Source: Escherichia coli (lineage in GTDB: Bacteria; Pseudomonadota; Gammaproteobacteria; Enterobacterales; Enterobacteriaceae). Taken from it: a stretch of DNA of 64,000 bases. The notes beneath the pieces are model-generated. The model ran no database searches. It saw nothing but the letters and a program-made list of their open reading frames with translations, and was not told the origin of the DNA. The stretch lies in the NCBI RefSeq assembly GCF_001677475.2, contig NZ_CP015229.1; one strand, given 5' to 3'. How positions within the stretch are numbered: the stretch's first letter is position 1; the number at the start of each line of letters is the position of its first letter. Positions 8,342 to 8,418 of this stretch are shown piece after piece. Position numbers and translations under genes: made by a program.

Positions 8342-8357
8342 TACCGCTATTGAGGTA
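8342..8357 (+). promoter_or_regulatory. candidate NarL 7-2-7 site (TACCGCT-AT-TGAGGTA) in the fdnG promoter
   Basis: Inverted heptamers close to the NarL TACYYMT consensus, separated by 2 bp, about 125 bp upstream of the fdnG start. fdnGHI is known to be nitrate-induced through NarL. Confidence 0.4.
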
Positions 8358-8404
8358 GGTCAATTTGCGCAGGCGGATTATTTTGTGGCAAACACGTGTT
8401 CTTT

Positions 8405-8418
8405 TTGATTTCGCGCAA
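8405..8418 (+). promoter_or_regulatory. candidate FNR site (TTGATttcgCGCAA) in the fdnG promoter
   Basis: TTGAT-N4-xxCAA half-site-conserved dyad about 65-78 bp upstream of the fdnG ATG, the right place for a class II FNR site. Match to the consensus is imperfect. Confidence 0.35.

Follow-up and report, generated by a model that had tools for sequence, protein, structure and literature searches.

Transcription of the fdnGHI operon, which codes for formate dehydrogenase-N, is under the redox control of FNR and the nitrate control of NarX-NarL, and maximal expression requires both the absence of oxygen and the presence of nitrate (PMC11841067). The question raised by this locus was whether two short sequences upstream of fdnG, an inverted pair of NarL-type heptamers and an FNR-type site, are the elements through which this control is exerted. 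We examined both sequences in the window (i.e., the whole 64-kb stretch of Escherichia coli DNA that was analyzed), in other E. coli genomes, and at fdnG loci of other Enterobacteriaceae.

The yddG/fdnG intergenic region

The yddG/fdnG intergenic region of E. coli spans positions 8252 to 8482 of the window (231 bp) and lies upstream of the fdnGHI operon. The two genes that flank it are as follows.

7370 to 8251, minus strand: yddG, aromatic amino acid exporter, divergent from fdnG (open reading frame, with the annotation under the match)
8483 to 11530, plus strand: fdnG, formate dehydrogenase-N alpha subunit, b1474 (open reading frame and annotation)

The fdnG ATG at 8483 opens the sequence MDVSRRQFFKICAG... 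(protein MDVSRRQFF...). An in-frame TGA was found at 9068 to 9070, after which the frame resumes and continues to 11530. The Rfam element SECIS_3 (84 bits), located at 9065 to 9123, begins at this TGA, which is the fdnG selenocysteine codon; because of this codon, the list of open reading frames splits fdnG into 8483 to 9070 and 9119 to 11530. The fdnG SECIS was the sole Rfam match in the window, and no RNA family was detected in the intergenic region.

A 451-bp stretch around the sites was present at the yddG/fdnG junction in 5413 of the 5426 complete E. coli genomes, with 95 to 100% identity. When the intergenic region was compared to that of K-12 MG1655, three SNPs were observed (8370 C/A; 8395-8396 CG/GA), and none of them was located in a motif. 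Six further E. coli genomes were sampled, and the intergenic variation was almost nil, which was too little to test selection on single bases. The window, K-12, and the six strains (eight sequences of E. coli) were compared together with three other Escherichia-type loci, and the core motif positions were unchanged except for position 7 of the left NarL heptamer (T/C) and one base in the spacer of the FNR site.

The region also contains a probable yddG promoter on the minus strand at 8324 to 8295, with a CTGACA element (8324 to 8319), an 18-bp spacer, and an extended -10 element, TGcTATAAA (8303 to 8295). A published anaerobic σ70 ChIP-seq peak (1545240) corresponds to window position ~8298, at this probable promoter, and a published H-NS-enriched region has an end at window position ~8354.

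The two motifs fit published NarL and FNR positions and a single transcription start

The original prediction placed a NarL site with 7-2-7 inverted-heptamer geometry at 8342 to 8357 and a candidate FNR site at 8405 to 8418, centered about 60 bp downstream of the NarL site. Both sequences were located exactly there: TACCGCTATTGAGGTA, or TACCGCT-AT-TGAGGTA when divided into its heptamers and spacer, has the predicted geometry, and its center (8349.5) is 62 bp from the center (8411.5) of TTGATTTCGCGCAA. The sites and promoter elements of the region are listed below; positions with a minus sign are relative to the fdnG transcription start.

8327 to 8333, minus strand: curated NarL heptamer at -124, AGTGGTG on the plus strand and CACCACT on the minus strand, listed for b1474; 1.75 bits (weak)
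8342 to 8357, no strand assigned: NarL/NarP 7-2-7 site TACCGCT-AT-TGAGGTA, with heptamers at -109 and -100 and its center at -104.5
8374 to 8380, minus strand: curated NarL heptamer at -77, CGGATTA on the plus strand and TAATCCG on the minus strand, listed for b1474; 4.2 bits
8405 to 8418, no strand assigned: FNR site TTGATTTCGCGCAA, centered at -42.5 (class II), kept in 80 of 80 loci
8437 to 8445, plus strand: extended -10 element TGtTAGTTT (hexamer TAGTTT at 8440 to 8445), in a conserved GCTGtTAGTTT with an information content of 1.66
8454, plus strand: probable fdnG transcription start, back-calculated from positions quoted in later papers

The supplement of PMC2718512, which compiles NarL sites from RegulonDB/CoryneRegNet, lists AGTGGTG, TACCGCT, TGAGGTA, and CGGATTA for b1474 and flags TACCGCT plus TGAGGTA as a 7-2-7' pair (3a/3b); the text of that paper counts fdnG as one of four genes for which a 7-2-7' site has been reported. 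Sites of the 7-2-7 type are bound by dimers (PMC4549865). In the window, the centers of the four curated heptamers are 8330, 8345, 8354, and 8377. The positions published for E. coli fdnG are -42.5 for FNR and -77, -100, -109, and -124 for the NarL heptamers (PMC3349551, citing Darwin et al. 1996). A single +1, the A at 8454, fits all five of these positions to the curated NarL sites and the FNR center, and no other +1 does. The original prediction had also proposed a class II FNR site at -42.5 and a NarL site near -100 to -105. Together with a start at 8454, the published positions yielded -42.5 and -104.5, and this start is consistent with both proposed placements.

A start at 8454 gives a leader of 29 nt, with a GAGG Shine-Dalgarno sequence at 8473 to 8476. 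The conserved -10 hexamer begins at 8440, and the center of the FNR site precedes this base by 28.5 bp; the site overlaps the -35 position, which reads AAAAAG (8417 to 8422). Because the fdnG promoter has an extended -10 element and no usable -35 element, it is likely to be activator dependent. A simple scan of positions 8200 to 8520 detected no two-hexamer σ70 promoter and no terminator; the absence of a two-hexamer promoter fits an activator-dependent fdnG promoter and does not place the start. A rule-of-thumb start derived from the TAGTTT hexamer falls at 8451 to 8453, which is 1 to 3 nt upstream of 8454 and moves the FNR site to between -39.5 and -41.5; a discrepancy of this size leaves the class II assignment of the FNR site unchanged.

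Published expression and binding data also connected the region to FNR and NarL. An FNR ChIP-seq peak is located in the yddG/fdnG intergenic region, and fdnG is named as the regulated gene of the yddG/fdnG pair in Table S9 of the same study (PMC3688515). In nitrate-free glucose minimal medium, fdnG was bound by FNR and its expression did not change in an FNR-dependent manner, and the gene was categorized as one that FNR activates in nitrate and that NarL also activates (PMC3688515). The genome-wide list of predicted FNR sites in that work lacks the -42.5 site and gives a palindrome at -97.5 for the yddG/fdnG peak. A literature text search with the exact 16-mer TACCGCTATTGAGGTA returned a single paper, on the engineering of tryptophan-production strains, and a search for fdnG with 104.5 returned nothing useful.

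Match quality of the two motifs

The NarL weight matrix was built from 68 curated heptamers and the FNR matrix from 62 ChIP-positive sites, in both cases with the fdnG entries left out. The 7-2-7 site differs at two positions from the degenerate consensus TACYYMT-NN-AKRRGTA, and the 64-kb window contained 4 matches to this consensus with two or fewer mismatches, compared to 3.9 expected. The weight-matrix score of the site was 12.2 bits, which ranked second among ~64,000 positions; about two positions with such scores were expected in shuffled sequences.

In the case of the FNR site, TTGATTTCGCGCAA agrees with TTGAT-N4-ATCAA at 8 of 10 positions; its left half-site matches in full, and only CAA is retained on the right. 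The window contained 51 matches to the FNR consensus with two or fewer mismatches (42 expected). The site scored 10.3 bits and ranked tenth in the window (10 observed, 4.6 expected), and its score was under that of the weakest of the 62 ChIP-positive sites (11.45 bits). The numbers of sites this good expected in a 231-bp intergenic region were ~0.0075 for the 7-2-7 and ~0.017 for FNR, and the expectation for both by chance was ~1e-4. Neither motif is remarkable by match quality, and it is their conservation that speaks decisively against chance.

The 7-2-7 site, the FNR site, and their spacing are conserved across Enterobacteriaceae

When residues 1 to 195 of FdnG were used as the query in one scan of species-representative genomes, 80 loci from many Enterobacteriaceae genera were recovered, with 88 to 100% identity. 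The upstream regions (79 distinct sequences) were placed in a gap-free alignment that was anchored on the FNR site. None of the 80 loci lacked TTGATTT...[GT]CAA upstream of fdnG, and its usual form was TTGATTTGACGCAA. A 7-2-7 with three or fewer mismatches occurred at the exact E. coli offset in 67 of the 79 distinct sequences, compared to at most 4 at any other offset. When four mismatches were allowed, a 7-2-7 was found 63 bp upstream of the start of the FNR site in 73 of the 80 loci, which carried 56 distinct 16-mers. The outer TA...TA of the 7-2-7 was near invariant (1.4 to 1.7 bits), whereas the flanking columns had ~0.1 to 0.2 bits.

NarL-type heptamer scores were also calculated position by position across the loci, and the only conserved peaks were at -109 and -100. 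The -124 heptamer was not conserved in other genera (information content of 0.29 versus a background of 0.47, and no heptamer score peak), and the position-by-position scoring revealed no NarL-like heptamer at the -77 position in other genera.

The alignment contained one additional conserved element, as follows.

8376 to 8389 (about -78 to -65), plus strand: conserved block, GATTATTTTGTGGC in E. coli, with a mean information content of 1.31 versus a background of 0.47 bits

In other genera (loci L007 to L075), the block keeps this distance from the FNR site and reads ACTATTAAGGGGG, the Enterobacter/Klebsiella version, or ACTATTTAGTAGC. The block was more conserved than the 7-2-7 itself. Two identities were considered for it and rejected: it is not a degenerate 7-2-7, as even its best fit has four mismatches and the key outer TA is missing, and it is not a NarL heptamer, as no heptamer score peak was observed there.

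The promoter-proximal layout varied in some lineages. The most distant loci, those of Enterobacteriaceae bacterium LSJC7 (L077), Tenebrionibacter (L079), Cedecea (L080), and Buttiauxella (L081), have no yddG upstream. In L077, L079, and L080, a 7-2-7-like site is located ~23 bp nearer the FNR site (centered at about -81.5 versus -104.5), with the L080 offset read by eye; in L081, the offset was also read by eye, and the placement of a 7-2-7-like site is unclear. In Citrobacter, Salmonella, and a few other genera, 50 to 150 extra bases separate the conserved promoter from the fdnG start codon. Specifically, the distance from the FNR site to the ATG is 126 to 223 bp in loci L007-L013, L015, L019-L023, L031, L033, L042, and L045 and 74 to 82 bp elsewhere.

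Proposed regulation of fdnGHI

We concluded, with a probability of about 0.93, that the region is the E. coli fdnGHI control region, that the two motifs are its NarL and FNR sites, and that they act as follows. Under anoxia, FNR would bind TTGATTTCGCGCAA at -42.5, over the -35 region, and would recruit RNA polymerase. Because the -42.5 site is weak, FNR occupancy alone would be expected to yield little transcription. When nitrate is available, NarX would phosphorylate NarL, and a NarL dimer on TACCGCT-AT-TGAGGTA at -104.5, 62 bp or about six helical turns upstream of FNR, would strongly raise transcription. NarL in this position probably assists the complex of FNR and RNA polymerase. The invariant spacing of the 7-2-7 and FNR sites suggests a contact that is specific to one face of the helix or a fixed nucleoprotein architecture. 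NarP also binds the fdnG 7-2-7 but is not known to activate the gene.

The fdnG control region has been a textbook model of NarL/FNR coactivation since the 1990s. The original finding was confirmed and its interpretation supported, and the feature was already known; as a discovery it is minor, a known control region that was correctly recognized. What the present analysis added is that the 7-2-7, the FNR site, and the 62-bp spacing are conserved across many Enterobacteriaceae genera and that the -124 and -77 heptamers, as NarL-type sites, are not. Two features were newly flagged, the strongly conserved -78 to -65 block and an Escherichia-specific FNR palindrome over the NarL site. Either of them could sharpen the view of the communication between NarL at -104.5 and both FNR and RNA polymerase.

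A candidate second FNR site overlaps the NarL site in Escherichia

The palindrome that was assigned to the ChIP-seq peak is located at the following position.

8350 to 8363, no strand assigned: putative FNR-like palindrome TTGAGGTAGGTCAA, centered at -97.5 and sharing 8 bp with the right NarL heptamer

One alternative reading holds that in Escherichia this palindrome is a genuine additional site for FNR and that FNR and NarL-phosphate compete for the stretch shared with the 7-2-7. The effect of NarL would then consist in part of displacing an unproductive or inhibitory upstream FNR dimer, which would add to the known scheme and not replace it. No other sequence in the window scored as high with the FNR weight matrix as the palindrome (15.8 bits; 0.2 such sites expected by chance). 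Table S6 of PMC3688515 gives it as the motif for the yddG/fdnG FNR peak, and the summit of that peak (1545309; window position ~8367) is ~10 bp from the center given for the palindrome and nearer to -97.5 than to -42.5. Both half-sites are intact in all five Escherichia-type sequences, including that of E. albertii (TTGAGGTAAGTCAA). Furthermore, the palindrome is 55 bp from the -42.5 site, a distance close to the 52 to 53 bp that separates the tandem FNR sites at yfiD and cydA (PMC3688515, Table S6). A second site of this kind would also account for the binding of FNR at fdnG without FNR-dependent expression in nitrate-free medium (PMC3688515).

Several observations stood against this reading. 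The palindrome was confined to the 5 Escherichia-type sequences among the 79 distinct sequences, whereas the 7-2-7 and the -42.5 site span genera. One half of it, TTGAGGTA, is dictated by the NarL heptamer, and GTCAA alone is additional; the palindrome may be a by-product. We considered the ChIP-seq summit as an arbiter between the -97.5 and -42.5 sites and rejected it because the summit-to-motif offsets in the PMC3688515 tables reach 40 to 76 bp at fnr, fnrS, ydfZ, and ynfE, so the peak cannot discriminate between the two. Finally, a literature search for -97.5 at fdnG found nothing. On balance, we regard a genuine second FNR site as doubtful.

The corresponding model, in which the right NarL heptamer was extended into a strong FNR palindrome in Escherichia only, with FNR occupying the palindrome under anoxia when nitrate is absent and NarL-phosphate having to displace it, is likewise improbable in our judgment. 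If it were true, NarL would be in part an anti-FNR switch at a promoter that is also activated by FNR, and fdnG would have a lineage-specific tandem-FNR arrangement.

The 7-2-7 site is linked to fdnG and not to yddG

It is very improbable that the 7-2-7, the upstream palindrome, or both regulate the divergent yddG gene and not fdnG. This idea draws on the presence of yddG as the divergent neighbor of fdnG in 73 of the 80 loci, on the plausible yddG promoter (minus strand, 8324 to 8295) that adjoins the NarL region, and on the anaerobic σ70 ChIP-seq peak at window position ~8298; a yddG start near 8288 would set the 7-2-7 at about -61.5 relative to yddG. However, the spacing from the 7-2-7 to the FNR site was constant at 63 bp, whereas the 7-2-7 was separated from the yddG start by 57 to 93 bp, depending on the locus, and three loci without yddG retained the 7-2-7 at an unchanged distance from the FNR site. 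We assigned the 7-2-7 to fdnG and not to yddG because the distance to yddG varies and the yddG-less loci keep the 7-2-7; the regulated gene in Table S9 of PMC3688515 is likewise fdnG.

The notion that both motifs are functionless chance matches, which would suit the chance-level rate of consensus matches in the window and the tenth rank of the -42.5 site, can be dismissed, as it is refuted by conservation at a fixed spacing in 73 to 80 of the 80 loci, although the sequence around them has turned over, and the sites are curated, published, and accompanied by an FNR ChIP-seq peak.

Other features of the window

Two FNR-like sequences elsewhere in the window were at chance level. One of them, TTGATCAACGTCAC at 1987 to 2000, is inside narU and is a predicted site with no ChIP peak in Table S6 of PMC3688515; the other, GTGATTAAAAACAA at 7207 to 7220, is ~100 bp upstream of a porin gene. 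This gene (6011 to 7111, minus strand) is intact and codes for a 366-amino-acid protein (Pfam Porin_1). It is part of the stretch between narU and yddG (3266 to 7111, minus strand) that also codes for two leucine-rich-repeat proteins (3266 to 4519 and 4582 to 5847). In K-12, this position is presumably occupied by yddJ, yddK, and yddL (a porin pseudogene). At least 80% of the segment from 5800 to 7400 was covered in only ~1100 of the 5426 complete E. coli genomes.

Between osmC and ddpF, an IS21-family element followed by a variable island was found at 18005 to 27154. The element contains IstB (18005 to 18760) and a 499-amino-acid open reading frame (18757 to 20256) that is presumably IstA and has a weak match to the Mu-transposase C terminus. 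The island contains a GntP permease, a thiolase, 3-hydroxyacyl-CoA and 3-hydroxybutyrate dehydrogenases, and a LysR regulator. None of the complete E. coli genomes had at least 80% coverage of 17600 to 27400 in one place.

Comparison with known systems

The closest comparison is the fdnGHI control region of K-12, which is the same locus: the four heptamers, the FNR site, the -10 element, and the leader are identical, and the three SNPs are outside of the sites. The narGHJI operon resembles fdnG in that it is induced anaerobically by nitrate and coactivated by FNR and NarL, and its regulatory pattern has been described as practically the same (PMC11841067). The architecture differs, however, because narG has no 7-2-7 and instead has heptamers around -89 and -195 and an IHF site (PMC4549865), whereas fdnG has a 7-2-7 at -104.5. 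No IHF-like element was found in the fdnG region. Unlike narG, fdnG is not known to require IHF.

The napF, nirB, nrfA, and yeaR promoters have inverted heptamers of the same type as fdnG, which are bound by NarL and NarP dimers (PMC4549865, PMC2718512). In the case of napF and yeaR, the 7-2-7 is located at about -40 to -49, beside the polymerase (PMC4549865), whereas at fdnG a class II FNR site lies ~62 bp downstream of the 7-2-7.

With regard to tandem FNR sites, the pairs at yfiD (~53 bp) and cydA are 52 to 53 bp apart in the ChIP-supported table of PMC3688515; the two FNR-like sites of Escherichia fdnG are 55 bp apart. In contrast to yfiD, the candidate upstream site of fdnG overlaps a NarL site and is genus specific. 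The upstream FNR site at yfiD is inhibitory.
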